Shown here one piece after another: positions 10,216 to 56,408 of a DNA stretch of 64,000 nucleotides. Source of the stretch: an uncultured Chloroflexia bacterium. Its GTDB lineage: Bacteria > Chloroflexota > Anaerolineae > CG2-30-64-16. Positions within the stretch are counted from its first letter, which is position 1. Each line of letters begins with the position of its first letter. The stretch lies in the NCBI GenBank assembly GCA_963841825.1, contig CAWJEL010000034.1:374-64373 (forward strand). Direction: 5' to 3'. A model generated the notes under the pieces. It ran no database searches. It was not told the DNA's origin and worked only from the letters and a program-made list of their open reading frames with translations. Both the position numbers and the translations under genes were made by a program.

Positions 10216-10217
10216 GG

Positions 10218-29342: not shown

Positions 29343-30425
29343 CTACCGCCACTTGGCCACGTGGTCGAAGATCGTCAAGATATTCTCCCAGGGCGCGTCC
29401 CCGTGAATATAATGACTGGGCGCCAGGATGAAGCCGCCGCCCTGGCCCAGCGTCTCCACCAGTTCGTCAAGGTGCCGGCGAACATCCTCCGTCGTACCAT
29501 GCACGAGGACGTCCTGCACGTCGATCCCGCCATGGAAACACAGATCCTTTCCGTACTCCCGCTTGAGCCGCCGCGGATCCATGCCGGCCGCGGTGGTCTG
29601 GATGGGATCCAGGATGTCCACGCCAATATCGATGAAGTCCGGGATGAAGTTGAACACCGCGCCGCAGGAATGCTGCATCACGCGTGCGCCGTGCCGTTTG
29701 GCCACCTCAAAAATCCGCCGATGATACGGCTTGTAGAACCGGCGATACATCTCCAGGCTGATCAGGTTACCGCGCTGCGTGCCGAAATCGTCCTGCACGC
29801 AGATGATGTCGATGCGACCCCCGGCGGCCTGGAGCGTCCGGTCGGTCAGCTCCGCAAAGAACGCTCCGATCGCCCCGTGGCAGTACTCCACCAGCTCCGG
29901 ATGAAGCGCCATCTCCGTGAGAACCCGCTCGAAGCCCAGCAGGTTGGCGACCTGGCCGAGGCCGCCGGCCAGGAAGAGAATGGCGTAATCGTCCGCGTCA
30001 GCGCATTGCCGGGCGACGGTGGCGTAGTCGAACGCGTCGGCCTTGGGCCAGTTGTATCTTTGAAGATCAGCCAGCGACTCGGCATGCGCCAGCGGGTGAT
30101 CGATGACCTCGTCGTTGTGCCCCCCGGCGCACGCCACCCAGCGCCGTCGATAACCATAGATGGTGTCCCACGTGCCATCGGGGCGGATGGCGGGATAGAG
30201 CACGCGCGTCGCGTCGCCGCGATACACGGGATAGACCCCGTGCAGGCAGTTGTTGAAAATGCCGTAGGTATCCACCGGCAAGGCGCGGACCAATGCTTGC
30301 ACGTCGGCCGCGCCGAAATGGGTCTGCAGCCGGCGCAGCACATCGTCCGATGCCTTGAAGCCCACCGGCAGGATGTCGCTGGGCCGCCGTTCAACTGCGG
30401 CCAGAACGCGCTCCCTGTGATTCAT
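29343..30425 (-). CDS. URO-D family protein
   Basis: 360 aa with MNHRERVLAAVERR, ICVQDDFGTQRG, FIPDFIDIGVDILDPIQ and GGGFILAPSH. Confidence 0.85.
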   Translation of the reverse strand: MNHRERVLAAVERRPSDILPVGFKASDDVLRRLQTHFGAADVQALVRALPVDTYGIFNNCLHGVYPVYRGDATRVLYPAIRPDGTWDTIYGYRRRWVACAGGHNDEVIDHPLAHAESLADLQRYNWPKADAFDYATVARQCADADDYAILFLAGGLGQVANLLGFERVLTEMALHPELVEYCHGAIGAFFAELTDRTLQAAGGRIDIICVQDDFGTQRGNLISLEMYRRFYKPYHRRIFEVAKRHGARVMQHSCGAVFNFIPDFIDIGVDILDPIQTTAAGMDPRRLKREYGKDLCFHGGIDVQDVLVHGTTEDVRRHLDELVETLGQGGGFILAPSHYIHGDAPWENILTIFDHVAKWR

Positions 30426-30462: not shown

Positions 30463-31499
30463 TCATGCCTCGCCGAACAAGAAACGGATAGTGTTCGTAT
30501 TGACTTGCGCGCGTTGCCCGGGCGACAGCCGGTCCAGCGCGGCCTTCTCCTCTTCGTAGGTGCCCTTCAGCCGGAACTCACGATATACCCCTTCCCCCTG
30601 GAGGCGGCGCGTGATGTAGCTGTGATACGGCGAATCGCTGGCCCACAGCATGGTGGTGGGGTATCGCTCGACCAGTTGCTGAAACAAGCGCGTGTGATCA
30701 TCGTAGTCCAGGTCCAGCATCTGGGCCGACCAGTCGTCCCGCGCGCCTTATCCTCCCGAAAGATCTCTACCTGGATCTTGAGCGCCGCGGTATCGACATA
30801 CATGTTCGGCAATTCGGCCGCGCGCTCGAAAGAAGGGCGATGACAGCCGATGCAGTGCGCCATGCAGAAACGCATCTCGGGATGGCGTTCGGCGACCTGA
30901 AGGATGTCGGCGACCTGTGAGAAAGGATCGGTCGGATCGAGCGTGGCGTGGAACAGGACTGGCCAGTCCCGCTCGGCGAAGAACGCCAGCAGCGGCGCGC
31001 CTACGTCCAGCAACGCCAGCGCCTTCGACTGCGCCATCAGCGGGTGGATTTTGACGCCGTAGATGGGAAACTCCTGCTCGAGATCCTCCAGGCTCGCGAT
31101 TTGCTCAGGAATCAGCCGGCCCGGGTCCACCGAGATGAACGGCAGGAAGCGTCCGCTGTGCTCCGGGCAGAACCGGTAGACGTCGGTTAGCAGCAGCCGG
31201 TTCTCGCGCTCGTAGGGCACATGCGAGATCGGCCGGGCCGCGGGCCGCAGCTCCCCGGTTTCGATCAGGGTCGGCAGGTCGTAGTGCAGCGCCGGCGAAA
31301 TGGGGAAGACCACACCGAAATCCACCCCATTGGCCTTCTGCCGGTAGGCCAGGTCCTCGGCGCTGGAGCAGTAGGGGAAGTTGATCTGCGCGGCCTCGCG
31401 CAGCGCGATTCCAATATGAGAATGCGCGTCGATCACCTTTCCGGCCAGATCTTCGCGGCGCAGGTGGCGTTCGATTCCGTGGTGATGCATCTCTGTCAT
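30463..31499 (-). CDS. Amidohydrolase_2-type protein (tandem paralogue A2), one frame break at 30738-30740
   Basis: VIDAHSHIG. It is colinear with 28320-29333 through shared blocks (PYERENxLLLTDV, FCPEHSGRFLPFISVDPGRL, SPYHSYITRRLQGEG). The C-terminal 85 aa lie in the frame of ORF 30463-30720. Confidence 0.8.
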
Positions 31500-31558
31500 T
31501 TTATCCCCTTCGGCTGCGCGTATGACGAGCCGTGCATTCTTAGTCTGGACTGGTGCTG

Positions 31559-32713
31559 TCAAAGCCCAATCCGCACCCAGTGAATCCCCATCGCCGTCTC
31601 GTCCCCGGCGTAGTACGCGACCATGACATCGCCGCCCGGAAGCAGCAGCGGCTCAGGATGGCCGAACGTCCAGATGCTCATATCGGCCCAGTAGTCGGTG
31701 AAGTCGCGCGAGACACCCATGCCCGATTCATCACCTCGCGCTTTGTCGTAGAACACTAACTCCTCGGCCGCGGTCCAGGTCCGGCCGAAATCATCGCTCA
31801 GGATCGCGCGCAGGCTCGGCGGATGATGCCGATGCACGTAGGCCGCGAAAACCCAACCACCACCCAGCGCCAGTGGCGCGCAGATTTGCCCCGCGATGCC
31901 GGTGCTTGCCGGCGCGGTCCACTGCCGGACGTCCGCGGCGCCCCATGTGATATGGATGTCGAGGTCCCGCCCGGCGCGCTGATCGTGGGTCCACAACATC
32001 GCGATCAACTCCCCTGTGTCGGGCGCGACGGTCAGGCGCTGGTCCCAGTACAGGACCTCCCCCTCGGGGTCATGCGCGACGATGGCCAGCTCCGGCCACT
32101 GGCCCGGCCATGCCGCTGGATCCTCCGAGGTGCGCAGGCCTCCCGGGCCGGTGAGGCGCAGCGCGGCGTGATGCCGGCCGGGAGATGTGTCCCCCCACGC
32201 CTTCCACGCCTCGTAGGGCAGCGCCATCCGGCCGTCCCGGAGGGGCAGGATCGCGCCGGTGATGGCGTTGCCCGTGTGGGGCGCCAGCGGCGCCTCGCCG
32301 AGCACCGCCCAGCCCTCGCCCGCGTCTTCCGATGCAGCCAGGAGCGTGCGTGTCGGCAGGATCCCCTCGGTTTGCGGGTCGAAGAGCGGCAGCGCCGGGT
32401 CGCTGCGGTCAACGCACGTCAGGCACGCCACCAGGCGGTCCCCGCCGATGGGGGCCAGCCCCGCGGCGCGGATGCGGCCCCGGCCTGGCGGCAGGTCTCC
32501 GAAGCCCCGGCAGACCAGGCGCCAGGTCGCGGCGTTGTCATCACTGACCAGCACGAGGGTATCCTCGTCGGCCGCATCCTTCGAGCTGCCCACGCGCAAG
32601 GCCGCGACGAGCCGGCCGTTCTCCAGCCGCACCAGGCTGGGAACCGTGCAGAAGCGCCTCTCAGGCGGCGCGGCGGTGGCGTCGAAGATCGTTCCTCGGT
32701 CAAGGATGCGCAC
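31559..32713 (-). CDS. BNR/Asp-box repeat beta-propeller (sialidase-like), no signal peptide
   Basis: 384 aa with Asp-boxes SDDNAATW, SEDAGEGW and SDDFGRTW. The N-terminus is MRILDRGTIFDA. Confidence 0.8.
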   Translation of the reverse strand: MRILDRGTIFDATAAPPERRFCTVPSLVRLENGRLVAALRVGSSKDAADEDTLVLVSDDNAATWRLVCRGFGDLPPGRGRIRAAGLAPIGGDRLVACLTCVDRSDPALPLFDPQTEGILPTRTLLAASEDAGEGWAVLGEAPLAPHTGNAITGAILPLRDGRMALPYEAWKAWGDTSPGRHHAALRLTGPGGLRTSEDPAAWPGQWPELAIVAHDPEGEVLYWDQRLTVAPDTGELIAMLWTHDQRAGRDLDIHITWGAADVRQWTAPASTGIAGQICAPLALGGGWVFAAYVHRHHPPSLRAILSDDFGRTWTAAEELVFYDKARGDESGMGVSRDFTDYWADMSIWTFGHPEPLLLPGGDVMVAYYAGDETAMGIHWVRIGL

Positions 32714-34284: not shown

Positions 34285-34381
34285 AGATTCTTGTTTTGTA
34301 TGCCGGAATCCGATTGGTAAGGGCCTAAAGGATCCTGCGCGATGCCGGTGGTGGAAATCCAGATTTATCTTTGCCCCCTGC

Positions 34382-35510
34382 CTAGTACCTGCCGTGCTTC
34401 TCCACCAGATCGCGCATGATCTCGATCCGTTCTTCGACCGCGTGCGGCGGGACCTGGTCGCCGGCGTTGGCGATGAGGCGTGGGCCGTGTTTCATCAGCG
34501 CCAGCCAGTCCAGGACCGACTGTTTGAAGACCTCGACAGGGACCTCCGGCAGCCACAGGTTGGGTGGCACGCCGCCGGAGAGAATGAAGTTGGGCCCGCC
34601 CTCTGCGCGACACTGGGCTGGGGTCAGATCCCCCATGGGCGTGGGGGTGATCGCGTCGCCGCAGTCCGCGCCCGTGTCGCGGATCATACCGATGGCCCCG
34701 CGCAGCCTGCCGTCGATATGCACGGCGACGTACTTCTTCGGCCGCGTGTAACCGACGGATCGCCTCGACGTAGTAGGGCCGCGACCATCTCCCGAAAATG
34801 TGGGGCGGCTGGAGATCACTGGAGAAGTTGTCGCCCAGGATGATGATCTCGGCGGGCGACGCCGCCAGCAGGTCGATCAGCTTGAGGTTGTTGTCGTTGA
34901 TCTGATCGACGACCTCGCGCAGGGTTACAGGCCAGTCCGCGGCTGCGTAGGCCGTGCCGCTAACGCCGAGCCAATAGTTGAGCAGGTGCCCCATCGCGCT
35001 GTAGCCTGCTGACAGGTAGACCACGCCCATGTTGCCGACCTCGTCAACCCAGGCCCGGTAGCGATCCCACAACGGCGCGTAGGCGCGCGAGCCCAGCGCA
35101 TAGCCCAGCACGCGCAGGTCTTGTTCGGTCTGCACCCCCCACCGGGTGATCGCCCACGAGTAGGACACCTCCTCCCACATGCGCCGGCGCTCGATGCTGC
35201 CAAACGGGGTGGTCAACCGCCAAGCAATCTCGGGCACGCCATCGTGGTCCACCTTCGAGACGTCCGACTGCACGTCATTGCCGTAGGCCGCACTGTAGAA
35301 CGAGCCAAGGTTGGGCATGTAGAAGCCAGCGCCGGCCCGTTTGTGATATGCGATCAGGTCGTACTCCGGCTGGTCGTAGGCGGCGCTCAGATCCCACGGC
35401 ATCCGGTTCTTGTGGTAGAACCAGTGCGAGAGATCCAGCATGTACGGCGCCACGTCCGGCGCCTCGCCACGGTAGACCGTGAGGATGCGCTCGCGCATTG
35501 TCATTGTCAT
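34382..35510 (-). CDS. URO-D family protein, one frame break near 34741
   Basis: The N-part MTMTMRERILTVYRGEAPDV...IILGDNFSSDLQPPHIFGRWSRPYYVEAIRRLHAA joins KKYVAVHIDGRLRGAIGMIRDTGADCGDAITPTPMGD. Confidence 0.75.
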
Positions 35511-36925: not shown

Positions 36926-38122
36926 CTAGTTCCCGAAGTAAGAGATCGTCCGCACCAGGACATCGGCCTGACGCTCGGCGGCGGACACGTCCCAGTAGTT
37001 GGTTTTGAACTGGAGCAGCTTGGGCTGCAACGACTCGGCTACGGGGCAGAGGCCCGGACCGTATGTCTGGACATCGGCCAGCCCTCCAGAACTCGGCGCG
37101 TGGAAGTGCTTGCCCCGAAAAGCGGGCTCCAGGTAAGTGAGCTGCCAGGCGGCATAGATGCCGTCGCCGCCCAGTTCGCGATACTTGGCCCGGAAGTCGT
37201 GCCAGGTGAAAGCGCCCTCATTCTCCAGCTTCAGGACGTACGTCCAGTAGGCGTGGCCGTAGCCATCAGGCACCGCCTGCGGCGCAAGCCATGCGCAGCC
37301 GTGGGCCACCTCGGCGTACAGGCGCGCGGCCCGAATGCGCGCCGCGACCAGTTCCTGCAACCGCTCGGTCTGCGCCAACGCGACGGCAGCGCACAGCTCC
37401 GGCAGCCGGTAGTTCCAACCCACGGACGCGTGCCGCTCGTAAGCCGGATCCTGGATCGTCTCCCGGGTGATCTTGCCTTTGCCGGCCGCCGCACCCACGG
37501 CCGCGTACCCCAGGCTGTTGAAGCGGCGGATCCGCTCGGCCAGCCCAGCGTCGTTGGTCGTGACCATCCCACCCTCGCCGCTGGTCATATGTTTGGAGCT
37601 CTGGAAGCTGAAACTGGCCGCGTGGCCAATACTTCCGACGATGCGGCCCTGGTAGGTCCCCAGAAAGCATTGGGCGTCATCTTCCAGCACGAAGAGGTCA
37701 TAGCGGGCGGCCAGCGCCATCAGAGGATCCATGTCCGGCGACAGCCCGTAGATCGCAACGGGGATGATGCCGCGTGTGCGCGGCGTGATCGCAGCGGCGA
37801 CTGACGCCGGGGCAAGAGTCCATGTGTCCGGGGCGACGTCGGCGAACACTGGGGCCGCGCCGGCGTGCAGCACGGCGAAGGCGGTGCTGGCCATCGTCAG
37901 CGGCGGCACGATCACCTCATCGCCTGGACCGATGCCGGCCGCAGCCAGCGCCGCATGCATCGTCGCTGTGCCGTTAATGAACGAGATCGCGTAACGGCAG
38001 CCGAAGATGGCGGCGAACCGTTCCTCCAGCCGGCGGGTCATCGAGCTCCCGGCAGAGGTGCGGAACTGGCCGTCCAGCACCTCCAGCACATATTGGCGCT
38101 CCAGATCAGTGATGCGTTCCAT
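36926..38122 (-). CDS. DegT/DnrJ/EryC1/StrS-type PLP aminotransferase
   Basis: Start MERITDLERQYVLEVL, with LEDDAQCFLG and FSFQSSKHMTSGEGGM. Confidence 0.85.
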   Translation of the reverse strand: MERITDLERQYVLEVLDGQFRTSAGSSMTRRLEERFAAIFGCRYAISFINGTATMHAALAAAGIGPGDEVIVPPLTMASTAFAVLHAGAAPVFADVAPDTWTLAPASVAAAITPRTRGIIPVAIYGLSPDMDPLMALAARYDLFVLEDDAQCFLGTYQGRIVGSIGHAASFSFQSSKHMTSGEGGMVTTNDAGLAERIRRFNSLGYAAVGAAAGKGKITRETIQDPAYERHASVGWNYRLPELCAAVALAQTERLQELVAARIRAARLYAEVAHGCAWLAPQAVPDGYGHAYWTYVLKLENEGAFTWHDFRAKYRELGGDGIYAAWQLTYLEPAFRGKHFHAPSSGGLADVQTYGPGLCPVAESLQPKLLQFKTNYWDVSAAERQADVLVRTISYFGN

Positions 38123-38201
38123 CGCTTCCGCTCTTTGAAATCGGGTAAATAGTCGCAAGCTGTCCGCAATTCTACACCCAGGCCGACAGCCTGTCAACAC
38201 A

Positions 38202-38262
38202 CAAACGTTCAATGCAACGCAGAAAAGTTACGTTTGACATTCTAAAAGAAACACGATATATT
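38202..38262 (+). promoter_or_regulatory. Near-consensus promoter TTGACA-N17-TATATT (38234-38262) overlapped by inverted repeat CAAACGT-N21-ACGTTTG (38202-38236)
   Basis: Read directly from the sequence. It lies in the divergent spacer between degT-like (38122) and deoR-like (38342). Confidence 0.6.
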
Positions 38263-38341
38263 TCTAATGAAATCTCTTCTCGCGTGTTTGCCCGATCGGG
38301 CAGGACATATTTTTGGCCCAAGTTCAAGAACGGCTGATACT

Positions 38342-39163
38342 ATGCCTCGAACCCCCGCTGCTGACTCCAGAAAAGACCGGGATGCACAGATTCTGCAGGA
38401 GGTCCTGCGCAGGACCTTTGTTAGCACGACAGATCTGGCGCGGCAGTTTGGCGTGTCCACGGTAGCGATCCGTCGCAACCTCGCCGATCTTGAGCAAGCG
38501 GGTCTGGTCAAGCGCGTCCACGGCGGCGCGCAAGCCTCAACACGCCCCGGCCAGGTTGCGCAGTACAATGCTCGACTCTTTGAAAGCGTCGCGACTAAGC
38601 GCGTCATCGGCCAGGCCGCGGCTCGCCTGATTCGATCCGGCGACACCTTGCTTCTTGATTCCGGCACGACGGTGCTCGAAGTGGCAAGGGCCATCCCTGC
38701 CTCGCTCCTGGAGAACGGCAATCTGACGGTGGTTACGCGCTCCCTGGTCATTGCCGCTGAGTTGCGCCACCAACGGCAGGTGCGCTTGATGGTACTGGGG
38801 GGCATCTACGTACACGATCTCGATGATTTCGTCGGCGCTCAAGTCGAATTCGGGCTGCAAGGTCTGCACGTGAACACGTGCTTTATTGGCACCGACGGCT
38901 TCTCAGTCGAACGCGGCATTACGACCGACAACGTGCTCGAGGCTCAGCTCTATCGCCTGATCGCGCGCGTCGCTGATCAGGTTGTGGTCGTCGCGGATTC
39001 CAGCAAGATCGGCAATCAGAAGCTGCAGACCATCCTCCCCTTCGCAGAGATCCACACGTTGGTCACAGATACGTGCGCCCCAACGGATTTTGTCCAATCG
39101 CTTCGCGACAAGGGCGTCAATATCATCCTGGCCCCCGCGCCGGCCCCGGAATCGTGCTCGTGA
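38342..39163 (+). CDS. DeoR family transcriptional regulator
   Basis: STTDLARQFGVSTVAIRRNLADLEQAGLVKRVHGGA, DSGTT and VVADSSKIG. The start was chosen downstream of the predicted promoter. Confidence 0.85.
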   Translation: MPRTPAADSRKDRDAQILQEVLRRTFVSTTDLARQFGVSTVAIRRNLADLEQAGLVKRVHGGAQASTRPGQVAQYNARLFESVATKRVIGQAAARLIRSGDTLLLDSGTTVLEVARAIPASLLENGNLTVVTRSLVIAAELRHQRQVRLMVLGGIYVHDLDDFVGAQVEFGLQGLHVNTCFIGTDGFSVERGITTDNVLEAQLYRLIARVADQVVVVADSSKIGNQKLQTILPFAEIHTLVTDTCAPTDFVQSLRDKGVNIILAPAPAPESCS

Positions 39164-39243
39164 GCAGGTCTTCGTTCTCTGTGTTTCAGCCACGCATGTG
39201 CATTACTTGGCCGCACTCTCTTCCGACAGGAGGTCGCAATTAG

Positions 39244-40716
39244 ATGGGCAAATTGCTCGGCACGCTGGACCCCTGGAAGCCTGAGGATCTGGAGAAGATT
39301 CACCAGGCCAGCCTGGACATCCTTGAGAGTGTCGGCGTAAGGGTCGACAGCGACGATGTGCTAAATATTCTCGAGGGTTCGGATGCTCGGATCGACAGAG
39401 ATCGCAGGATCGTCAAGTTTCCCGCGGCGATGGTGCAGGAGAGGATGCGGAATGCACCTGGTTGCTGGGACAGGGTAGCCGGGAGTCCGACCGAGTTCTC
39501 GGTGAGCGTTGACTGCGGCGCGTACAACGTCTGGGATTATGCAACTCGCCGCGCCAGGCCAACGTCGATCCGGGATTACATCGACGTGCCTCGGCTGGTG
39601 CAATCGCTCGAACACATAGACGCCGCAGGCAACCTCATCTACTCTGCCGATGTTCCTTCTGCCGTGGGTGACATGATCGCATATCGGCACATGTGGACCC
39701 ACACGCAGAAAAAGGGCGGGGGAGGTTTGGGCCGATCTCCCAGTTGTTGCCACGCACTCCTTCCGAAGTCGTTCGATTATCTTTGCCGGATGCTGGAGAT
39801 CAAGATCGGCAAAGAGAAAATGCAGACCGATCCCGAGTTCAGCTTTTTCATGGGGTCAGCCAGTCCGCTACGCTTCGGACGGGATGTCCTTGAGATGGCG
39901 ATGCATGCCATCAGACGGGGACAGATAGTCGGCATCGGAGGCAACTGCAATTGTGGCGTGCAGTCGCCGATCACCGCTGCGTCCAACATCGCCATTGATC
40001 ATGCCGAGCGGCTTGCGGGCATGTGCATCGTCACCTCGATTCACCCGGACGCGAAGTTCTATTTCTGTAATCACACCTATTTTCTCGACATGCGGAGTGC
40101 TGATATCGCGAGCGGCTCACCGGAGCAGACGCTTCTGGCGCTTCTTGGCAAGAAGGTGCTCGAACATTGTGGCTTCCAGTTGGTGGTCAATCATCCGATC
40201 ATGGATGTCGGGGCGCATTCGCCGGATGGGCAGGCTGCCGCGGAGAAGATGATGTATGCGCTGTTGACGGCCCTGGGCGGCACGCAAGGGATCGGCGGCG
40301 CGGGTCAACTCAAGGAAGATTTCTGCTACGAACAACTGGTCATCGACAACGAGATAGCGGGATACGTAAAACACCTGGTCAAGGGCGCTGAGATTAGCGA
40401 TGAAACCATTGCGCTGGACACCATCAAGGAGCACGGCATCGGAGCTCATTTCCTGGACTGCGAGACCACGCTGCTTCACCTGCGAGAATCGTATTATGCG
40501 CCGACGCTCTTCTACAGGAAGCGAAAGTCGGAGTGGCTCGGAGAGGGGGCCGAAGAATCTGCTCGTACCAGCGCGCACGAAAAAGTCGAAGAATTGCTGT
40601 CTCGTGACACGCCGGTCTTCCTCACGGATGCCCAATTGGCTTTGATGGATGAGATTATCGTGGAAGCCTGTGCGGAGCTGACCGATGGTTGGGATCCGAG
40701 GCCTTATCTGTGCTGA
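39244..40716 (+). CDS. MttB (trimethylamine methyltransferase) superfamily protein, non-pyrrolysine
   Basis: 490 aa as one uninterrupted ORF. It shows KIHQASLDILESVGVRV, PLRFGRDVLEMAMHAIRRGQIVGIG and VIDNEIAGYVKHL, typical of the MTTB family. Confidence 0.8.
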   Translation: MGKLLGTLDPWKPEDLEKIHQASLDILESVGVRVDSDDVLNILEGSDARIDRDRRIVKFPAAMVQERMRNAPGCWDRVAGSPTEFSVSVDCGAYNVWDYATRRARPTSIRDYIDVPRLVQSLEHIDAAGNLIYSADVPSAVGDMIAYRHMWTHTQKKGGGGLGRSPSCCHALLPKSFDYLCRMLEIKIGKEKMQTDPEFSFFMGSASPLRFGRDVLEMAMHAIRRGQIVGIGGNCNCGVQSPITAASNIAIDHAERLAGMCIVTSIHPDAKFYFCNHTYFLDMRSADIASGSPEQTLLALLGKKVLEHCGFQLVVNHPIMDVGAHSPDGQAAAEKMMYALLTALGGTQGIGGAGQLKEDFCYEQLVIDNEIAGYVKHLVKGAEISDETIALDTIKEHGIGAHFLDCETTLLHLRESYYAPTLFYRKRKSEWLGEGAEESARTSAHEKVEELLSRDTPVFLTDAQLALMDEIIVEACAELTDGWDPRPYLC

Positions 40717-40757
40717 AGAGCACCACGGGGACCTGGTTGACTGACGAAACGCGATTA

Positions 40758-40827
40758 GCCGCGGATCGACGCGGATTTTCACGGATCAATCGCGATAAAT
40801 CTGTGCAAATCCGCGTAAATCCGCGGC
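40758..40827. repeat. 70-bp hairpin element (GCCGCGGATCGACGCGGATTT ... AAATCCGCGTAAATCCGCGGC)
   Basis: Near-perfect 21-bp inverted arms starting 42 nt after the mttB-like stop. Confidence 0.6.
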
Positions 40828-40993
40828 ATTTTTCAACTCGGAGCGTTAGTTTTCACCGGCGTCCACGTTCTGTGAGTCATTCAGCCATGGGGACACAGAG
40901 AGCACGGAGATTTCGGAAGATGCTCAGTGCGCTTCGTGCCTCCGTGGTTCGTCTGCCGCGGCGCCGCCCGCTGCATATCCATCTGTCCTGAAT

Positions 40994-42034
40994 GTGAGGG
41001 AAGGCGTGCTACTTATCGAGCCATTCGATCCCGGCGCAGCCACATTCGCCGCCAGACGCGGCACCATCCACGATCTGATCGTCCAGCCGGCCGCGCCTGG
41101 TTCTCGGATGTCGAGCGGCGGCACCTGGAGGGCGCACTCAGCGGGGAGTTCGCAGGCGCGCCGGCGTGCGACCGCTTCTGGATCGCCCGAATCGGCGCGG
41201 AGCCGGTCGCCAACGCTTACTTCGGCAGCGCGGCCGGTGCTCCCGAGATCGGTCTGCTTGGCTTCGCGATCACCGCCCCGGCATATCGCGGCCGCGGATC
41301 GCGGGATCGCTGCTCCGCGAGGCGCTGGCCGATTTCGTGGCCAGGGGCGGCGCCTGTATGCATCTTGCCACCGACGACCCGGCAGCCCACCGCGTCTATG
41401 AGCGCTGCGGCTTCCGGGATTATCAGGGACACGTTATGCGCTTCCTGGCGGCGGCGACTGCGGAAGATTTCGATCGCCGCTATTTTGCGAACGTCGGGCC
41501 TGCCCAAAGCCGGCAGGCGCATTGGGGCGATCTCGCCGGGTCACTATGCTATACGTGGCGCCGCATCGCTGGTTCGTGCGCGACTACGCCGAGCGGTTGT
41601 ACAACCACCCGGCCATCATGCAGACCCGCTGCGCATCCATTTTGCCCGCTCTGATGATAAGTACAACCGAGCGTCCGGCCCGCGCAAACCTTGCTGTCGG
41701 AGGGTTGTGGGTGCTGGAGAACCCGGCCCGGCGCCTGGTGGGGGCGGTGACGGTGACGCCGCCGGACCTCAGCGCCCAGGTGCATGCGCCCATTATGGAT
41801 TTCCTGGTCGCGCCTGCCTACCTGGGTCAGGCGGCGGACTTGTTGGGGGTCGCGCTGGACGCCAGCCGGTCGGGAGAGGCGGAGGGCGTGCGCTGCTGCG
41901 TGGCGGCCTGCGATCATGAGAAGATCGAGATCCTGCGGCAGGTCGGGTTTCGCCGCGAGGCGACGTTGTCCGGGCAGCTCAAAGCTGGCCACGATCGGTT
42001 TGACTTGCACGTGTACGGTTATTCACTGTCCTGA
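40994..42034 (+). pseudogene. Two-domain GNAT-type acetyltransferase, 3 frame breaks (about 41090, about 41297, 41538-41540)
   Basis: The segments LLIEPFDPG..., AWFSDVERRHLEG...IGLLGFAITAPAYRGRG, IAGSLLREALADFVARGGACMHLATDDPAAHRVYERCGFRDY and VTMLYVAPHRW...ILRQVGFRREATLSG lie in successive frames. Confidence 0.65.
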
Positions 42035-42104
42035 GAAGTACAACAAGGAACATGGGGGTCGATCGATGGCAACCCGCGTCGATGACCGAAAGGAGGTCAG
42101 CCAG

Positions 42105-42530
42105 ATGTCTGCGGGCGATTTCTATTATGCCATCAATGCCACTTTCCGCCACATCCACGACACCTACGGCAAGGATATCCTGATCGATTACTGGACAGCG
42201 ATGGCGCACGAATACCACGCCGATGTCGCTGCGCGTTTCCGCGAAGGCGGCCTCGATGAGGTGCAGCGTTACTGGGCCGACTATTTTGACCACGAGCCGG
42301 GCGGCGATGTGCAGGTTTGCCTGGTCGGTGCGGAGGTTGTGATCGATGTTCGCGATTGCCCTGCCATCCGATGGCTCAAAGAGGGCGGCCGCGCGATCGT
42401 CCCCTACTACTGCGAACACTGCCATCACGTCTCCACGGCGATCGCTGAGCAGGCGGATATGCGGTTTGTCCTGACGGGCGGGGGCGGAACATGCAACCAG
42501 GTCTTCAGCTTGGAAGGAGGGCCGACATGA
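42105..42530 (+). CDS. Small Cys-motif protein (DCP...YCEHC), possibly ATC-hydrolase-like fold
   Basis: 141 aa from the ATG 8 nt after AAAGGAGG, with VRDCPAIRWLKEGGRAIVPYYCEHCHH. It is a paralogue of the next gene. Confidence 0.65.
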   Translation: MSAGDFYYAINATFRHIHDTYGKDILIDYWTAMAHEYHADVAARFREGGLDEVQRYWADYFDHEPGGDVQVCLVGAEVVIDVRDCPAIRWLKEGGRAIVPYYCEHCHHVSTAIAEQADMRFVLTGGGGTCNQVFSLEGGPT

Positions 42531-43077
42531 TCGGTGTGCAGGATTTCATCGGCTACTATGACTGGACCTTCGAGTACCTGCGGCGTAACTTCGGCGAGCA
42601 GGCCGTGCGTGACTATTGGGTGCGCGCCATCTCACAGGATTCGCAGATCCACGCCAGGGAACTGATCGTCGGTAAGGGCTTCGACGGTATGCACGAGTAC
42701 TGGGCGCACACCCTCGAGATGGAGGAGGCCGGGTACACCTTCGACCGGGGCGACGACTACTTCCGCATCGACATGGTCGACTGCCCGTCCAAGGGCCATC
42801 TGATCAACGCGGGTTGGCTGCCTATCATGATTATTGCGAGCACTGCATGGGCTGGATCAAACCGCTGATGGACGACGCCGGCTTCGTCATCGACCATGAA
42901 CACAATCATGCCGGGAAGTGCTGGTGGGAGATGCGCCGGGCGGCGGAACGCCTGACGGCGCCTCCCCCGAATCGCGGCCCCGACGATGTGCGGAACCTGT
43001 CAAGCTGGCAGCAAGCGCAGCATGATCTCTTTCTGAACAGCGAGCGCCAGGAAGACGATGCCGGCGATGTGATTTAG
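42527..43077 (+). CDS. Small Cys-motif protein, paralogue of 42105-42530, one frame break near 42815
   Basis: The start overlaps the upstream stop (ATGA). MVDCPSKGHLINAG then AAYHDYCEHCMGW follows in the next frame. Confidence 0.6.
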
Positions 43078-43133
43078 CCCGTGCGGGACGAGGGAGATGG
43101 ACAGGTCAAGTTGAGCCATCCAGGAGGCTGAGC

Positions 43134-44130
43134 ATGAGGTTTCTTCAAATTGGGCTGGGTTCGATGGGCAAGCGTCGCGTGCGCTGCATCCACACGCTGC
43201 CGCGCGGGCGAGACGATCGGTTTCGACCTGCGCGCCGACCGGCGGGCGGAGGCGGAAGGCCTGTACGGCATCCGCACGGTAGCCAGCTTTGAAGATGGAA
43301 TGGACAGCGATCCGGATGCGATCCTCATCTCGACACCGCCCGACCAACACGTAGCATACTGCCTGGCTGCGATCGCGGCCGGGAAGCCCTTCTTCGCCGA
43401 AGAGACGGTGATGCTGGACCCGGAGGGGGTAACGCCGGTGCTGGCCGCGCTCAAACAGCGGCCGGTGCTGGCCGCGTCAAGCTGCACGATGCGCTTTCAC
43501 CCTGCCATACAGCAGATACGAGCGGTGCTGCAAAGCGGCGAAATCGGCCGGCCGCTGGCCTTCACCGCGTTGAGCTTGAGCTACTTGCCCGACTGGCACC
43601 CGTGGGAGCAGGTGCAGGATTTCTATGTCGCCAGCCGGGTCAGTGGTGGCGGCCGCGAGATGGCGATCTTCGATCTGGATTGGATCGAGTGGCTTTTCGG
43701 CAACATGACCACGGTGATGGCAGAGGTGAGCAAGGTCTCGCAGATTCCGGCTGATATCGACGACGTGTTCCACCTGTTGGGGCGTTTCGGCGGCGGGCTG
43801 CCGGGGTCTTTCACCTCCAGCGTCGCTTTTCCCGTGTCGGGCCGCACCCTTGAGGTGGCTTGTGAGAACGGCCAGATCATCTGGGATAGCCGCGCGCACC
43901 GGGTCATGGTTTACAGCGCGGCCGATGGTAAATGGCAGCACTACATGGAGACCGCGTCCCGCGAGCACTCCTATGATCGTATGTACATCGACGAGATCGA
44001 GCATTTTCTACAGGCCATGCGGGGCGAGGTGACCTACATGCGTGATTTCCATGACGTGAAGCGTATGCTCGAGGTGCTCTGCGCAATTGAGCGGAGCGCG
44101 ATCGATGGCCAGCGCATCGGGCTGGCATGA
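43134..44130 (+). CDS. Gfo/Idh/MocA family oxidoreductase, one frame break near 43200
   Basis: The start MRFLQIGLGSMGKRRVRCIH follows GGAGG. The body (ILISTPPDQHVAYCLAAIAAGKPFFAEE...) lies in the frame of ORF 43150-44130. Confidence 0.75.
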
Positions 44131-44186: not shown

Positions 44187-45311
44187 TCAACCAGATCCAT
44201 CCCGCCATAAACTTTGGATCGCTACATCCACCAGGGCCTGCAGGTTCGCCAGGGGCGTGTCGGGCGGCACCATATCGCCGGCGGCCAGGATGTAGCCGTG
44301 CGGCCCACCCTCGCGACATTTGCGGATGGCCTCAACTTGCACCTCTTCCGGCGTGCCGTTGGCGAGGGTGAGCGTGTTGACTCCGCCCATCAGTGCAACC
44401 CGCCCACCGATGCGGCGCTTCGCGTCGGCCACGTGGACACCGCCCAGCGGATCTAACGGCTCGACGACGTTTGCGCCGGTGTCCGCCAGCATCTCCAGGA
44501 TCGGCCTCGAATTGCCACAAATGTGAATGTAGATCAAGGTGTCACGGTCCCGGAAATGAGCGCAGAACTTCTGGTACGCGGGCAGGCAGAACCGCTCGAA
44601 GTGCTTGGGGCTGATTAGGCTGGCGCTGGCGGCCGGGTCTCCGATGTACAGACAATCGATCCCAGTTGCCAGCAGCCGCTCGGCCCGCTCGATCATGACG
44701 TCGGCTTGCATGTCCATGGCCGCCTGGACGAAGTCGGGCCGTTCGTAGAAGTCGATCATCGCCTGTTCGCGGCCACGGAACGCGGTGTAGGTGTTCATCG
44801 TGATGCCGCCCGGCGACGAGGCCACGAACAGGCCCGGGACCCGTGCCCGTGCGGATCGCAGCAGGTCCATCTTCTCGTCACTGAACTCGCGCCGCATCGC
44901 ATCGAGCCTGACCCGATACTCGGCCAACGTCTCACTCACGGCCGGCTTGCGATCGGGGACCAGCGCGCCGCCGCCGTACGTGTCGATGCGGCCGATGCGG
45001 TCCCCCGTCTCCCGAGCCAGCACGATCAGCTCGTCATCCTGGCGCACCACGCGCATCGGCTCGGGTTTGACGAAGAGCCGCAGGCCGTCGCAGCCGACTT
45101 GCTGGACGATCCGGATGACCAGGTCGTAAATGACGGCCGGGTCTTCGATGCACCGCTGCATACCGTCGAGCCAGTCCCCGCCGGGCGCCGGAAACGCCCC
45201 CGCGTAAATGCGCACGGGCAGATCGTGGCAGATCTGCGGCATCGTAGGTATGCGCCCGTCGGGGGTCGGCTCACGACGCATGGCCGCGATCATCAGTTCG
45301 CGCGAGTTCAT
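44187..45311 (-). CDS. URO-D family protein
   Basis: 374 aa with MNSRELMIAAMRRE, LYIGDPAASASLISPKHFERFCLPAYQKF and HGYILAAGDMVPPDTP. Confidence 0.85.
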   Translation of the reverse strand: MNSRELMIAAMRREPTPDGRIPTMPQICHDLPVRIYAGAFPAPGGDWLDGMQRCIEDPAVIYDLVIRIVQQVGCDGLRLFVKPEPMRVVRQDDELIVLARETGDRIGRIDTYGGGALVPDRKPAVSETLAEYRVRLDAMRREFSDEKMDLLRSARARVPGLFVASSPGGITMNTYTAFRGREQAMIDFYERPDFVQAAMDMQADVMIERAERLLATGIDCLYIGDPAASASLISPKHFERFCLPAYQKFCAHFRDRDTLIYIHICGNSRPILEMLADTGANVVEPLDPLGGVHVADAKRRIGGRVALMGGVNTLTLANGTPEEVQVEAIRKCREGGPHGYILAAGDMVPPDTPLANLQALVDVAIQSLWRDGSG

Positions 45312-47075: not shown

Positions 47076-48146
47076 TCACTCGCGCCACCGATAATCCCGC
47101 GCCGCCTGACACATAGCCACTACGTTCTCCGGCGGGGTGTCACCCTGCACGTTGTGCGCGGCGGCCACCACATAGCCGCCGTTACGGCCCAAGATGTCGA
47201 TGATGCGCGTCGTCTCCCGATAGACCTGTTCCGGCGTCCCGTGGGGCAGCAGCTCCTGCTCGTCGATGCCGCCGTGAAATGAGAGCCGATCACCGAACGC
47301 CTCGAAAAGGGCTTCCGGGTTCATGCCGGCCGCCTGGGGCTGGATCGGGTCCAGTAGATCCAGCCCGACCTCGATCAGGTCGGGGATGACGGGCACGAGC
47401 GAGCCGCATGAATGATAAAAAGTCTTGAACCCGAGCGACTTAAAGGTGCCGATAAGCCGCCCGGTGTAGGGCTTGATGTGCCGGCGCCAGAGGGTGGGGT
47501 TGAGCATCATGCCGCGCTGGGTGCCGATGTCCCCGCCGGTACCGATGATGTCGATACGGTCGCCCGCCACATCCAGCACGCGCAGCGCGCGCAGCCGATA
47601 GTATTCTTCGACGTGCCGGCAGATGGCTTCGGCGATCTCCGGCTGCTGGCGCAGGTCGATGAGGAACTGTTCCAACCCCCGCAGGTACCACGGCGTTTCG
47701 AAGGCGCCCCCGGCGAAGAACATGATCGCCCGGCGGCCGGCCGCGTGCTCCTTCTCGATCAGCCGCGGCATGGCCGAGTAATCCCACCACTCCAGGCTCG
47801 GCCAATCGTACGCCTCGATATCCGCCACCGTCTTGCAGTCGGCCAGCGGATGGCCGTCCCACTCGTAGTAGGTGTTGAACTCGGTCTCCACTTTGCGGAT
47901 GCGGCAGCCCCAGAAGTCGACCCCTTCGCTGCCCAAGGGAGCCGCTGACCGCCCGGCCGGGCCGATGAACGGCAGGCCGACCCGGCGCATATCGACATCC
48001 AGCAAGTCCAGCACGGCGCTGTCGGAGGTCGCGCCGAGGTAGGCCCGCAGCGCGGCCATTGCTTCCGGGGTGCATGTCAGATCGAGCGCCGGACGGTCGG
48101 GCCGTCGCCGCTCCGTCGCGGCGAGAACTCGTTCACGACTATTCAT
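47076..48146 (-). CDS. URO-D family protein
   Basis: 356 aa with MNSRERVLAATERR, IIGTGGDIGTQRG, VIPDLIEVGLDLLDPIQ and GGYVVAAAHN. Confidence 0.85.
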   Translation of the reverse strand: MNSRERVLAATERRRPDRPALDLTCTPEAMAALRAYLGATSDSAVLDLLDVDMRRVGLPFIGPAGRSAAPLGSEGVDFWGCRIRKVETEFNTYYEWDGHPLADCKTVADIEAYDWPSLEWWDYSAMPRLIEKEHAAGRRAIMFFAGGAFETPWYLRGLEQFLIDLRQQPEIAEAICRHVEEYYRLRALRVLDVAGDRIDIIGTGGDIGTQRGMMLNPTLWRRHIKPYTGRLIGTFKSLGFKTFYHSCGSLVPVIPDLIEVGLDLLDPIQPQAAGMNPEALFEAFGDRLSFHGGIDEQELLPHGTPEQVYRETTRIIDILGRNGGYVVAAAHNVQGDTPPENVVAMCQAARDYRWRE

Positions 48147-49350: not shown

Positions 49351-49462
49351 TCACGCATCACGTATCACGTATCACGTATCACGCATCACGTATCACGCAT
49401 CACGTATCACGCATCACGTATCACGTTTCACGCATCACGTATCACGTATCACGCATCACGTA
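49351..49462. repeat. Heptamer tandem array (TCACGYA)x16
   Basis: Sixteen contiguous 7-bp units counted base by base. The array abuts the SD of the BNR gene and encodes the last 4 codons plus the stop of the upstream small gene. Confidence 0.95.
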
Positions 49463-49772
49463 TCACCCTCTCCAGCAGAAAGACGACCGGTCGATAGCCA
49501 TCCGTGCAGCAGGTGACGAACATCTCCTGCCCGCCTCTGGCGATGCCGTACACCAGCTTTTGGATGTCGGCCCACGCCCAGCCGCAGAAGCCCTCCGGCA
49601 TGGCCCACGGCGCGTCGCCTGACACCTCGAATCGCTGGCCGATCTCGAAATGCTTGCACTCCGTCCAGATGTCAGGGTTAGCCGCGTATTTGGCGACGAA
49701 CTCCTGGTGGAAGTGTTTCTTGAGCACGGTGATGCGCACGGGATGTTTCTCGACGGTGAAGTTTTCGCTCAT
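49449..49772 (-). CDS. Small Cys-containing protein, TIGR04076-like
   Basis: 107 aa with [23 protein letters not shown] and [18 protein letters not shown], which resemble the TIGR04076 family as I recall it. Confidence 0.65.
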
Positions 49773-49804: not shown

Positions 49805-51226
49805 CTACGCGCCCAACTTCCGGTACTCGCCGGCAAAATAACGCCGGATTCGCTCCTGAACCGCCTCGCTGTGCGGCGACCGGGCGCTTGCCGCGATCTG
49901 CTCGGCGCGCTGGTGGGCGCGCGTCAGGAGCGAGGGCGGATTCGCCTCGCTGCCGCCGGTGTAGTCAAGCAGCTCGTGCGCGAAGAACTCGTCCGACCGC
50001 AGGAAGCGCAGGGTCAGGTCGTCTATCAGGAAGTTGCCGCCGGGGCCGGCGCGCTCGATGTTCTCCACGCCCAGCCGCAGCTCATCCATGCGGATCCCGC
50101 GCTGCAGATATTGTGCCGACGCCAGCCAGGCGGTGTGGATCAGCATCATCTCGGCCGACATGCCGATGGCGTTGTAGGTCGAGCCGATGCCGGCCAGCAG
50201 GTGGGCGCCGGAATTGAGCGCGCTCAGCATGAAAAGCATCCCCTCAGCCCCGTTCTGCTGATCGTAGCGGTGGGTCATGGTGCCGCCGCATTCGGCGGCC
50301 ACCGGCATGCGGTACGCCTTGCCGAGCTGGACCGCGGCGGTCTTCCACAGCACCTTGTCCAACGTGTAATACATGTCGTGGGTGGATCGCATGTGCCCCA
50401 CCGAGAGGCCCGACGCATATAGGTAGGGATTGCCGCGCCGCGCCGCCTGCGTCAACGCAGCCATGCCGATGACCTCCACATTGCTCTGGAGCAATGTGCC
50501 AGCCATACTGTACGGGCTGGTCATGCCTGCGATCGGGCAGACCGTGGGGACGACGGGGAAGCCGCGGCTGCACGCGTCCAGCAGGAAGGCGACATTCAAA
50601 TCGGAGCAGGCCAGCGGGCTGAGCGATCCCACGGCGACCGTCATCGACGCGCCGCCGGGATCGCGGCCGTCGAACATGATTTCGGCGAGCGCCAGGTAGT
50701 GGCGATAGCGGATCATGTCGGTGGCCATGTTGTAGAAGTGCTTGGCGTGTCCCAGCGCCCACGCCTCCATGGCCCGCAGGCTGGAGATGGGCTCCGGCAC
50801 ATCGGTCAGCGGAAAGTCCATCAGGCTGCTGGCGACCACCATGGGCAGCGCCTGGACGATCGTGGTGTGCCGGCGCAGATCATCGAGGCATGGCCGGCGC
50901 GGCTCGCCGGTTTCGTAATCGATGATCCACGGATCGGTGACGATGGCCAGGCAACCGGGCGGCGCGGCGTTGTCGCCCACCACATGCCGCAGGCCGCCGG
51001 CGCCCGCGATGGTGTAGGTCGCGGGCACCGCCGCCAGCAACTCCCGCAGCACGGGCCGCGGGAAGCGGACGCGGCCCTCGGCCTCGTCCACCCGAGCGCC
51101 GGCCGCGCGACAGCGCGCCAGGAGTTCCGGGTGCGTCACGCCCAGGCCGGTCCGTTCGAGGATCTCCTCGGTCTTCTCCATGATCAGGGCAACCTGGCCT
51201 TCGGTAAGCGCTTCGGACAGAATCAT
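49805..51226 (-). CDS. MttB superfamily protein, non-pyrrolysine
   Basis: 473 aa from MILSEALTEGQ (after AAGGAG) as one uninterrupted ORF. It shows IMEKTEEILERTGLGV, GFPVVPTVCPIAGMTSPYSMAGTLLQ and ERAGPGGNFL. Confidence 0.8.
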   Translation of the reverse strand: MILSEALTEGQVALIMEKTEEILERTGLGVTHPELLARCRAAGARVDEAEGRVRFPRPVLRELLAAVPATYTIAGAGGLRHVVGDNAAPPGCLAIVTDPWIIDYETGEPRRPCLDDLRRHTTIVQALPMVVASSLMDFPLTDVPEPISSLRAMEAWALGHAKHFYNMATDMIRYRHYLALAEIMFDGRDPGGASMTVAVGSLSPLACSDLNVAFLLDACSRGFPVVPTVCPIAGMTSPYSMAGTLLQSNVEVIGMAALTQAARRGNPYLYASGLSVGHMRSTHDMYYTLDKVLWKTAAVQLGKAYRMPVAAECGGTMTHRYDQQNGAEGMLFMLSALNSGAHLLAGIGSTYNAIGMSAEMMLIHTAWLASAQYLQRGIRMDELRLGVENIERAGPGGNFLIDDLTLRFLRSDEFFAHELLDYTGGSEANPPSLLTRAHQRAEQIAASARSPHSEAVQERIRRYFAGEYRKLGA

Positions 51227-51246
51227 GCGTGTGTCTCCTTTGGGTG

Positions 51247-51377
51247 TTGGTAGATTGGTAGATTGGTAGGTTGGTAGGTTGGTAGGTTGGTGCATCGGAA
51301 ACCGAGTCTACCCGTTTACCAATCCACCAGTTTACCAATCCACCAGTTTACCAATCTACCAGTTTACCAATCACCAG
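51247..51377. repeat. Octamer array (TTGGTAGR)x5 plus 4 copies of 16-mer CAGTTTACCAATCYAC in opposed polarity
   Basis: The 8-mers lie at 51247-51286 and the 16-mers at 51312-51374. The TACCAA core of the 16-mer is the complement of the 8-mer core TTGGTA. Confidence 0.9.
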
Positions 51378-52421: not shown

Positions 52422-52434
52422 GATTCCTCCAGAG

Positions 52435-52507
52435 GACGATGGACGATGGACCATTGACGATGGACCATTGACCATGGACCATCGTCGGTCGTCCATCGTC
52501 CATCGTC
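52435..52507. repeat. Perfect 17-bp inverted repeat built from GACGATGGAC-type units
   Basis: GACGATGGACGATGGAC (52435-52451) pairs with GTCCATCGTCCATCGTC (52491-52507). The interior is also self-complementary. The repeat starts 4 nt upstream of the SD. Confidence 0.9.
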
Positions 52508-52520
52508 AGTCGTCAACACC

Positions 52521-53487
52521 CTACTTCGTCGGCCCCTGCCACTCCCCCATGTCCGCCGGCCACGTACCGGGGTTGAGCTGATTGTGGTCGCTCACCGTGA
52601 CCTGCCGGATGGCCGTGATCAGCGCCGGCGTCAATGGTCCGCCATTGGCGAAAGCCAGGGCGGCTTCCAATTCCTCGCTGCGGGCCGTGCCAACCAACGC
52701 GGTCGTCACGGCGGGATGCGTCAGGACGAAACGGTAGGCCATTTCGGGCAGGCTGCACCCTTCCCCATCCGCCAGGCGGCTCAGTTGTGCGATCGCCGAC
52801 CGCAGCTCGGCCAACTGCTCCGGGAGGAGGGCGAAGCGATGTGTCAACACCCCCCGCAGCAACACAGAGCGCACGATGACGCCCACGTCCTGCTGCTGTG
52901 CCCGCGGCAGCACAAGTTCCTCCAGTGACCTGTCGGCCAGGTTGTACGCGATCTGGAGGGTATCGTAGCCGCCGTCCTCCAGAGCAGCGAGCGGCGCCGT
53001 CTTCGCCGTAAGTTGACGCGCCGATGAACCGCACCTGGCCGGCCCGTTGGACCTCCCGGGCCGCCGCCAGCACCCGGCCGCTTGTGATCACATCGGCCGG
53101 CGCCCAGTGAAGCTGAAGCAGGTCAATGACATCCGTTTGCAGCATCCGCAGGCTCTCGGCAATGGAAGCCTTAACTTGTTCGCGCAGCTCCCCATCCGAC
53201 TGGCCCTCTTCGCGGATCGGTGCGAGCTTGCTGGCCAGGATATACGCATTCCGTCTGCCCTTGAGCGCCCGGCCGATAACCTCTTCGCTGGCGCCGTACG
53301 CGCGGGCGGTGTCGATGAAATTGACGCCGAGGTCGAGCGCCCGGTTGAGCAGCCGCGCAGCGTGCTCTTCCGGTGGCCGTAGGTGCTCGCCGGCGACCGG
53401 CACCCCATAGTCCAGGCCGATCTCCACCGTGCCGAGCGAGATTTCTGAGACTTCCAGTTCCGTGCGACCCAAACGACGATAATTCAT
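52521..53487 (-). CDS. Aldo/keto reductase, one frame break near 52990
   Basis: MNYRRLGRTELEVSEISLGT and NFIDTARAYG. The C-terminal half (LAALEDGGYDTLQIAYNL...VIVRSVLLRGVL) lies in the frame of ORF 52521-52913. Confidence 0.8.
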
Positions 53488-56318: not shown

Positions 56319-56408
56319 CCTTCGATCCTTCGATCCTTCGACCCCGCTCAGGACAGGCTTCGCTCAGGACAGGCTCCGCGCTGGAGAGGCTTCGCTCAGG
56401 GCAGGCGC
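56319..56408. repeat. Short tandem repeats: (CCTTCGAY)x3 then 4 degenerate 16-mers CGCTCAGGACAGGCTY
   Basis: The 8-mers lie at 56319-56342 and the 16-mers at 56345-56408. The last copies encode the C-terminus and stop of gene 56364-57165. Confidence 0.8.

Follow-up and report, generated by a model that had tools for sequence, protein, structure and literature searches.

How an MttB-superfamily methyltransferase might work in a locus that offers no recognisable corrinoid partner is the question raised by a 64,000-nucleotide stretch of DNA from an uncultured Chloroflexia bacterium (contig CAWJEL010000034.1, positions 374 to 64,373; hereafter the window). A first-pass annotation had described there a plus-strand operon in the order deoR, mttB-like, GNAT, Cys1, Cys2 and Gfo/Idh/MocA oxidoreductase (38.2–44.1 kb), and had left the choice between a partner encoded elsewhere and a different chemistry. 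The reading favoured here, tentatively and with somewhat less than even confidence, is that the cluster is a real, conserved catabolic unit in a large amino-sugar or glycan utilisation island, in which the MttB homologue would act as a corrinoid-dependent, corrinoid-loading methyltransferase (MT1) on a non-betaine N-methyl amine, the carrier would be encoded elsewhere in the genome, and the GNAT would acetylate the product. The unit itself is a mosaic, and only two of its genes form a conserved pair:

39244..40716, plus strand: non-pyrrolysine MttB-superfamily protein of 490 aa, intact (PF06253, 3.6e-57).
40994..42034, plus strand: GNAT-like protein of about 347 aa after frame correction, with a GTG start (PF00583, Acetyltransf_1, 3.2e-14, residues 54-141).

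The MttB homologue matches PF06253 (COG5598) over its full length (residues 7-465 of 490, profile positions 30-485 of 500), and a phmmer search of the PDB returned 7xcl (2.8e-38) and 2qne (3.7e-31). The best-scoring solved structure is thus the pyrrolysine (Pyl)-containing MttB of Methanosarcina barkeri (7XCL; 135 bits, 26% identity), a member of the same family, with 112 bits (E 4e-31) and 24% identity to MtgB of Desulfitobacterium hafniense (2QNE, 9YCE). The full-length PF06253 match, the lack of pyrrolysine and the retention of the superfamily-invariant columns liken the protein to MtgB and to MtpB, MtcB, MtyB and MthB. The open reading frame (ORF) contains no internal stop or UAG and carries Ile in the Pyl column; against the equivalog model TIGR02369 it reaches 252 bits, to be compared with a cut-off of 525, and it is not a true trimethylamine MttB.

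A search of 5.8 billion proteins placed this homologue in a sharply bounded group, whose members are 41-90% identical to it, with a metagenome contig (L017) at 92%, and beyond them identity falls abruptly to at most 30%. The members are almost all of metagenomic origin, those with names being metagenome-assembled genomes (MAGs) of Opitutaceae and Planctomycetaceae, and a neighbour-joining tree recovers the clade as monophyletic, on a long stem of its own, away from both MtgB and Pyl-MttB. As judged from identity and tree position, the homologue is a member of a distinct, uncharacterised clade; the first-pass annotation had envisaged that it might nest within a clade of known substrate specificity, and it does not. 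A literature search on this clade, or on MttB in glycan loci of Verrucomicrobiota or Planctomycetota, found nothing relevant.

The clade also departs from the characterised enzymes at the substrate site, as seen in an alignment that combined MtgB and MttB with 23 clade members and eight outgroup sequences. Glycine betaine is bound in MtgB by the experimentally verified residues Y97, R312, H348 and F356, and of these R312 is reportedly shared by every non-Pyl member characterised, the substrates being described as acidic quaternary amines (PMC13080624). Across the 23 clade members these four columns hold C/S/A/T/G, V/M/A/S/W/Y, a gap and a gap, respectively, and the window protein reads C, V, gap, gap, so that in the comparison of substrate residues proposed in the first-pass annotation none of the four MtgB residues is kept. 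Because R312 is absent from the clade, a different kind of substrate can be argued. In contrast to M. barkeri MttB, there is no UAG or Pyl, and the column of Pyl334 is occupied by Ile or Val throughout the clade, as part of an HP[IV][ML] motif that is specific to the clade and has a two-residue insertion; the active-site Tyr364 of MttB aligns with Gly in the window protein in a pairwise alignment, and Gly110 falls in the clade's Cys/Ser/Ala column (PMC9842639). The clade nevertheless keeps 10 of the 10 superfamily-invariant columns and most of the near-invariant ones, and has invariant residues that include R148, R164, R210, N234, Q240, R256, N276, H317, P318, H325, Y362 and R427, H277 being nearly invariant. 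A conserved Cys cluster (NCNCG, SCCH), considered as a further clade feature, was rejected, its Cys residues falling below 95% conservation.

The second element of the pair is a GNAT of about 330-347 aa, which is the recurrent neighbour of the clade, present in the window, in L002/3/4/6/12, L007, L013-L017, L019 and L020, and directly abutting the end of mttB in L007 and in a JGI contig (P0191). No Pfam match was obtained for the uncorrected pieces of the window gene; after correction, the PDB returned generic GNATs such as SpeG and nothing specific. The protein had been described as a two-domain GNAT, and of this the GNAT core stands after correction, whereas the C-terminal 180 or so residues (about 170-347) match no Pfam family at E <= 0.1. 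Other neighbours vary from locus to locus and comprise a second MttB paralogue with an MFS transporter, a DAO-type FAD oxidoreductase, URO-D, glycoside hydrolases, a sulfatase and BNR_2. The clade represents a variant, itself uncharacterised, of a known family, and has in the GNAT a new conserved partner. The window locus differs from those of the MtgB group in having this GNAT as neighbour instead of an adjacent corrinoid protein, MtgA or RamA.

Two further observations concern this gene pair. The 601-aa P0191 protein was considered as a Rosetta-stone fusion of MttB and GNAT and rejected, since in it MttB residues 1-238 are followed by an out-of-frame mttB 3' end and then by the full GNAT; on this reading of the frames either a deletion or a misassembly, and not a domain fusion, produced it, and it still supplies an intact GNAT sequence. 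In the clade's Opitutaceae loci, the genes for MttB and GNAT are separated by one for an FAD oxidoreductase of the DAO type that resembles sarcosine oxidase (L002 8351-9514; L012 3108-4274), an arrangement that fits a stepwise N-demethylation in an aerobic organism.

Under the favoured reading, the MttB-like TIM-barrel enzyme would demethylate an N-methylated and probably quaternary amine, which would not be an acidic betaine of the glycine betaine type and could be a methylated amino compound from glycan breakdown. The acceptor of the methyl group would be a corrinoid carrier whose gene lies elsewhere in the genome, on the model of Ruegeria pomeroyi, and the GNAT would then acetylate the demethylated amine; Cys1/Cys2 and the Gfo/Idh/MocA dehydrogenase would be accessory modules, which occur without MttB too. 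The cluster is probably DeoR-regulated.

Several results weigh against this proposal, most of them concerning the carrier. Pfam scans of about 50 window ORFs, covering called ORFs of about 100 aa and above, found no B12-binding, pterin-binding (PF00809) or RamA-type domain, and a six-frame scan of the 64 kb for the DxHxxG..SxL..GG motif gave a single off-frame junk match, in agreement with the first-pass annotation, which had recognised neither a B12-binding protein nor a reductive activase. Rfam detected no cobalamin riboswitch in the window (nor, together with tRNA scans, any other RNA family or tRNA). Among 22 assembled clade loci (280 kb in total), which are partly redundant and include many short contigs, the six-frame motif scan found the B12-binding motif in none, whereas 17 of 69 loci of other MttB clades (655 kb), taken from the same search as positive control and contrast, contain D[LI]H[DE][IL]GK...SALL...GG. 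No corrinoid protein, pterin-binding unloading methyltransferase (MT2) or activase was found in the window or around the 22 clade loci, and it is family membership, and nothing else at the locus, that points to cobalamin dependence. The acetylating role of the GNAT is, moreover, a guess from the adjacency of the genes, and DeoR, the Cys pair and the oxidoreductase are syntenic in close relatives only.

The missing carrier gene has, however, a documented precedent. In the aerobic R. pomeroyi, MtgC and MtgD, both of which are needed for glycine betaine demethylation, are encoded at loci apart from each other and from the methionine-synthase module (PMC12478193). Because such unlinked partners are documented, the absence from 64 kb would, by this analogy, be weak evidence for new chemistry and not in itself anomalous. 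The likeness to this MtgB/MtgC/MtgD system, an aerobic split methionine synthase, lies in an MttB-family enzyme, a likely aerobic organism and no adjoining corrinoid protein, and is drawn from the published description (PMC12478193); the R. pomeroyi system differs in its glycine betaine substrate and in having no GNAT partner. The earlier alternative of a partner elsewhere or a different chemistry survives both the search for neighbouring carrier genes and the clade placement, as far as these were run.

The unloading step also needs to be recast. The first-pass annotation had taken as established that the methyl-corrinoid is unloaded by a URO-D-fold methyltransferase, a scheme that holds for methanogens, whereas in bacteria the MT2 is the pterin-binding (PF00809) MtgA (PMC12478193, PMC13080624). 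URO-D-like genes are indeed abundant in the window, as had been noted, with six Pfam-matching proteins and one split candidate. They match the C-terminal half only of the MtaA/CmuA models (117, 108 and 98 bits, with 244, 235 and 400 required), so that, PF00809 being absent as well, no MT2 was found at the locus by either model. By eye, three of these proteins (44187-45311, 47076-48146 and 29343-30425) keep an H-x-C motif (IHICG, HSCG) and lack the second Cys of the MtaA-type zinc site, and they appear to form a separate URO-D-like family typical of these islands.

Other explanations have to be set beside a corrinoid-dependent demethylation. The MttB clade may have left corrinoid chemistry altogether and catalyse, directly with the GNAT, a cobalamin-independent TIM-barrel reaction on a sugar-linked or non-betaine substrate. 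This is considered unlikely, even if the contrast between 0 of 22 and 17 of 69 loci, the loss of all four MtgB substrate contacts, the Gly at the Tyr364 position (read against PMC9842639), the clade's own invariant R148, R164, R210, R256, H317, H325 and R427 with the near-invariant H277, the conserved GNAT, which is unknown in characterised MttB systems, and the oxygen-using DAO and glycan-degrading genes in the neighbourhood all point that way. Corrinoid methylation is, however, common to all characterised members of the superfamily (PMC13080624, PMC12155760, PMC8604678), none of the superfamily-invariant columns is lost, unlinked partners are documented in aerobes (PMC12478193), and the absence in cis is negative evidence from short metagenome contigs. 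In its boldest form, likewise doubtful, the proposal would be that a widespread, metagenome-only, GNAT-paired MttB clade with corrinoid-free loci acts on a non-betaine N-methyl substrate from glycan breakdown, either without cobalamin or through an unrecognised carrier; if true, it would give the MttB TIM barrel a type of reaction new to it, and aerobic polysaccharide degraders a route for demethylating amino compounds. DegT, a Gfo/Idh/MocA dehydrogenase and an acetyltransferase form the classic trio of diacetamido-sugar biosynthesis. Since all three are present here, the cluster could instead build a modified amino sugar, with the MttB-like enzyme methylating; this seems very improbable, as the island is filled with uptake and breakdown genes (ABC, MFS, three DeoR, AraA-like, FGGY, HpcH, DHDPS-type, BNR_2), no glycosyltransferases or nucleotidyl-transferases were found in it, and the relatives adjoin glycoside hydrolases and a sulfatase.

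A more prosaic explanation is that the downstream half of the cluster (GNAT, Cys2 and oxidoreductase) is truly pseudogenised and the cluster a decaying remnant, which is improbable in spite of the state of the genes as sequenced. Three of the six are broken, the GNAT by three shifts (frame 2 from GTG 40994, frame 1 from about 41096, frame 0 from about 41296, frame 2 from about 41537), Cys2 by one at about 42808 and the oxidoreductase by one at about 43200, and the earlier gene models had ignored these five frameshifts, reading straight through all three genes. The shifts fall within 2.2 kb, denser than the window average, and a terminator-like hairpin insert parts mttB from GNAT, both of which would suit decay. 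The dN/dS ratio against the closest relative found (L007, a syntenic 241-kb ENA contig of 87% DNA identity) is, on the other hand, 0.03-0.26 on most frame segments flanking the shifts, including 0.03 and 0.12 for the two segments of Cys2, with 0.51 for the 33-codon first segment of the GNAT, and the frame segments showed no internal in-frame stops. L007, the contig naming of which suggests long reads, carries different single-base indels, which split mttB and DegT, and has Cys2 as an intact 183-aa ORF (L007:10423-10974). An intact 333-aa GNAT homologue (L002:7234-8235) aligns collinearly across the three frames of the window gene, and single-frame intact copies of the GNAT occur in the metagenome contigs P0191, L014, L017 and L020, such intact orthologues including some on JGI contigs whose assembly names are of short-read style. 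At two of the five sites a C or G run is shortened, and frame correction brings back Pfam domains (the GNAT and the Rossmann domain of the oxidoreductase). The window as a whole shows about one frameshift per 4 kb, at least seven further genes being split between frames:

7712-9002: FGGY kinase.
9120-10275: URO-D-like protein.
10943-12107: DegT.
30567-31562: Amidohydro_2.
34365-35510: URO-D-like protein.
52513-53487: aldo/keto reductase, with the Pfam domain in two stretches over two frames.
62698-63910: FG-GAP protein.

Because a relative has different shifts, intact copies exist elsewhere, dN/dS is low and splits occur window-wide, the five frameshifts of the cluster are, on this comparison, almost certainly assembly errors and not gene decay. 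The practical lesson is that the assembly is prone to indels, so that gene models drawn by eye need frame checks.

With the corrinoid-dependent demethylation of a non-betaine amine retained as the favoured reading, the interest of the clade lies in the breadth of what it could add. Most of the MttB superfamily is uncharacterised, and because active sites are poorly understood, substrates are hard to predict from metagenomes (PMC13080624). A clade that lacks the shared R312 arginine, has its own invariant His and Arg residues and a fixed GNAT partner, and is found at loci for glycan utilisation in Opitutaceae, Planctomycetaceae and uncultured relatives is a clean biochemical target, and its substrate, once known, would widen the MttB range beyond small betaines. 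It would also test whether separately encoded corrinoid carriers, as in marine Roseobacters, are the rule in aerobes.

The remaining features of the transcription unit, with the divergent promoter-like site upstream, are as follows:

38169..38197, minus strand: divergent promoter-like site TTGACA-17-TAGAAT (11 of 12 positions matched), facing the DegT aminotransferase gene 36926-38212.
38234..38262, plus strand: sigma-70-like promoter TTGACA-17-TATATT (11 of 12 positions matched).
38287..38304, plus strand: leader palindrome or hairpin TTTGCCCGATCGGGCAGG (also written TTTGCCCGATCGGGCA), between the promoter and the deoR ATG.
38342..39163, plus strand: DeoR-family regulator of 273 aa (HTH_DeoR 1.6e-15, DeoRC 4.3e-45).
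40717..40993, plus strand: intergenic insert of 277 nt from the mttB stop to the GNAT start, with an imperfect palindrome and a terminator-like hairpin.
42105..42530, plus strand: Cys1, 141 aa, intact; a conserved uncharacterised family with a predicted Bet3/V4R-like fold and a Cys4+His motif.
42527..43077, plus strand: Cys2, about 183 aa after correction, its start overlapping the Cys1 stop (ATGA).
43134..44130, plus strand: Gfo/Idh/MocA oxidoreductase of about 331 aa after correction, ATG at 43134 (MRFLQIGLGSMG...), with PF01408 and PF22725.

The window has a GC content of about 62%, and its minus strand carries nearly all coding. The unit at 38234-44130 contains the single sizeable plus-strand coding block (about 38.3-44.1 kb in a frame plot of third-position GC, GC3), which bears out its earlier description as the only such unit in the island. 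As a six-gene operon it has fared less evenly: the order, the DeoR and the intact MttB and Cys1 hold, and GNAT, Cys2 and the oxidoreductase are not ORFs as originally drawn. Upstream of deoR, a divergent intergenic region of 130 bp contains the two promoter-like sites. The near-consensus plus-strand promoter had been called in the first-pass annotation, and because its invariant -35 hexamer, most of the -10 region and the leader palindrome are conserved in two relatives (L007 and L015), the predicted promoter is better than chance. The palindrome lies at the same place in both, its stem kept in L007 through a wobble change and shortened in L015, and possibly represents a DeoR operator or a leader hairpin. 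The DeoR regulator is 91% identical in amino acids to its L007 orthologue, with a dN/dS of 0.12.

Whether the unit is read as one message depends on the insert between mttB and GNAT. It contains an imperfect palindrome of 70 nt (40758-40827) and a hairpin with a T-run (40811-40836) that resembles a terminator, and because of these a single transcript for the whole unit is not assured. The insert is missing from L007, where it corresponds to a 275-nt alignment gap, and from the P0191 contig, the mttB and GNAT frames abutting in both, and possibly represents a small repeat element uncoupling mttB from GNAT.

The Cys1/Cys2 pair downstream belongs to a separate, stand-alone two-gene cassette. Cys1 has 147 homologues, of which the 120 listed are 53-87% identical and carry no Pfam domain; there is no Pfam or NCBIfam model for the family, and a profile search of the PDB returned no specific match. 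Among the invariant residues are C85, P86, C103, H105, C106 and C130, in the motif C-x17-C-x-H-C-x23-C. Cys2 is a distant paralogue of Cys1 (28% identity, E 5e-9), so that the earlier view of two paralogous proteins of roughly 140-180 aa is right as to paralogy, and Cys2 is not one ORF as given. Without MttB, the two genes occur in a Hydrogenedentes MAG, amid BNR_2, FG-GAP, AKR, SDR, Gfo/Idh/MocA, DegT and DHDPS genes, and in a JGI contig whose protein NCBI names as Armatimonadetes (cassettes at L008 8001-8959 and L009 8001-9007).

An AlphaFold2 model of Cys1 (predicted local distance difference test, pLDDT, 94.7) leads in Foldseek to Bet3/TRAPP subunits and to the MopR/PoxR/DmpR sensor domains, with template modelling (TM) scores of 0.53-0.63 and a best E of 8e-4. 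The likeness to V4R/Bet3 and these sensor domains lies in a fold of three helices plus four strands, at E of about 1e-3, and Bet3-family proteins form heterodimers (PDB titles 2c0j, 2j3r). MopR-type sensors carry a Cys-rich Zn site. The differences are the lack of a match of Cys1 or Cys2 to the V4R profile in Pfam, or of any other sequence match in Pfam, NCBIfam or the PDB, the pair's own Cys motif and its stand-alone cassette. As judged from the model, Cys1 and Cys2 probably form a heterodimer that binds Zn, at a Cys4 metal site, and also a small molecule. The pair was also considered as an unconventional corrinoid carrier and rejected, being Bet3/V4R-like rather than of the flavodoxin-like B12-binding fold and occurring without MttB. 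In the last gene of the unit, the PF01408 NAD-binding domain extends over profile positions 40-114 before correction and 2-114 after, and the C-terminal domain matches PF22725 at 1.9e-17; the family and start assigned earlier to the gene at 43134 stand, with the frame breaking at about 43200.

The setting of the cluster is consistent with catabolism of glycans. The Pfam scans recorded at least seven Amidohydro_2, four or five BNR_2 and three DeoR proteins, two each of DegT, Aminotran_3, Gfo/Idh/MocA and MttB, and also ABC and MFS transporters, an AraA-like isomerase, an FGGY kinase, HpcH and DHDPS-type aldolases, a CoA-transferase and a HisD-like dehydrogenase. The glycan context of the window and its relatives taken together comprises BNR_2, glycoside hydrolases, a sulfatase, DegT, MFS and ABC transporters and DAO.

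The second MttB of the window lies on the minus strand with a small protein directly downstream:

49805..51226, minus strand: second MttB-superfamily paralogue (PF06253, 2e-47; 114 bits to MtgB in the PDB).
49449..49772, minus strand: TIGR04076-family protein of 107 aa, directly downstream of the second MttB (56 bits, cut-off 33).

This paralogue is 18% identical to the first and of a different lineage; in the neighbour-joining tree it and the paralogue of L001 stand on separate long branches. The TIGR04076 family is without known function, and its pairing with the second MttB is a candidate for checking across genomes.

Short-period tandem repeats (7-16 nt; for instance TCACGTA x16.6) are found at 49351-49466, 51246-51291, 51310-51377, 52434-52514 and 56345-56406, in or near intergenic regions, and some overlap extended ORF starts and add false N-terminal residues, for example 'PTNLPTYQSTNLPT' in the second MttB. 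At the left end of the window, inspection by eye suggests tyrosine-recombinase-like and HNH-like ORFs (639-1844 and 2402-2875, minus strand) and a low-complexity His/Asp/Gly-rich ORF with 30-nt repeats (4840-5499, plus strand), which together may mark a mobile-element border of the island.

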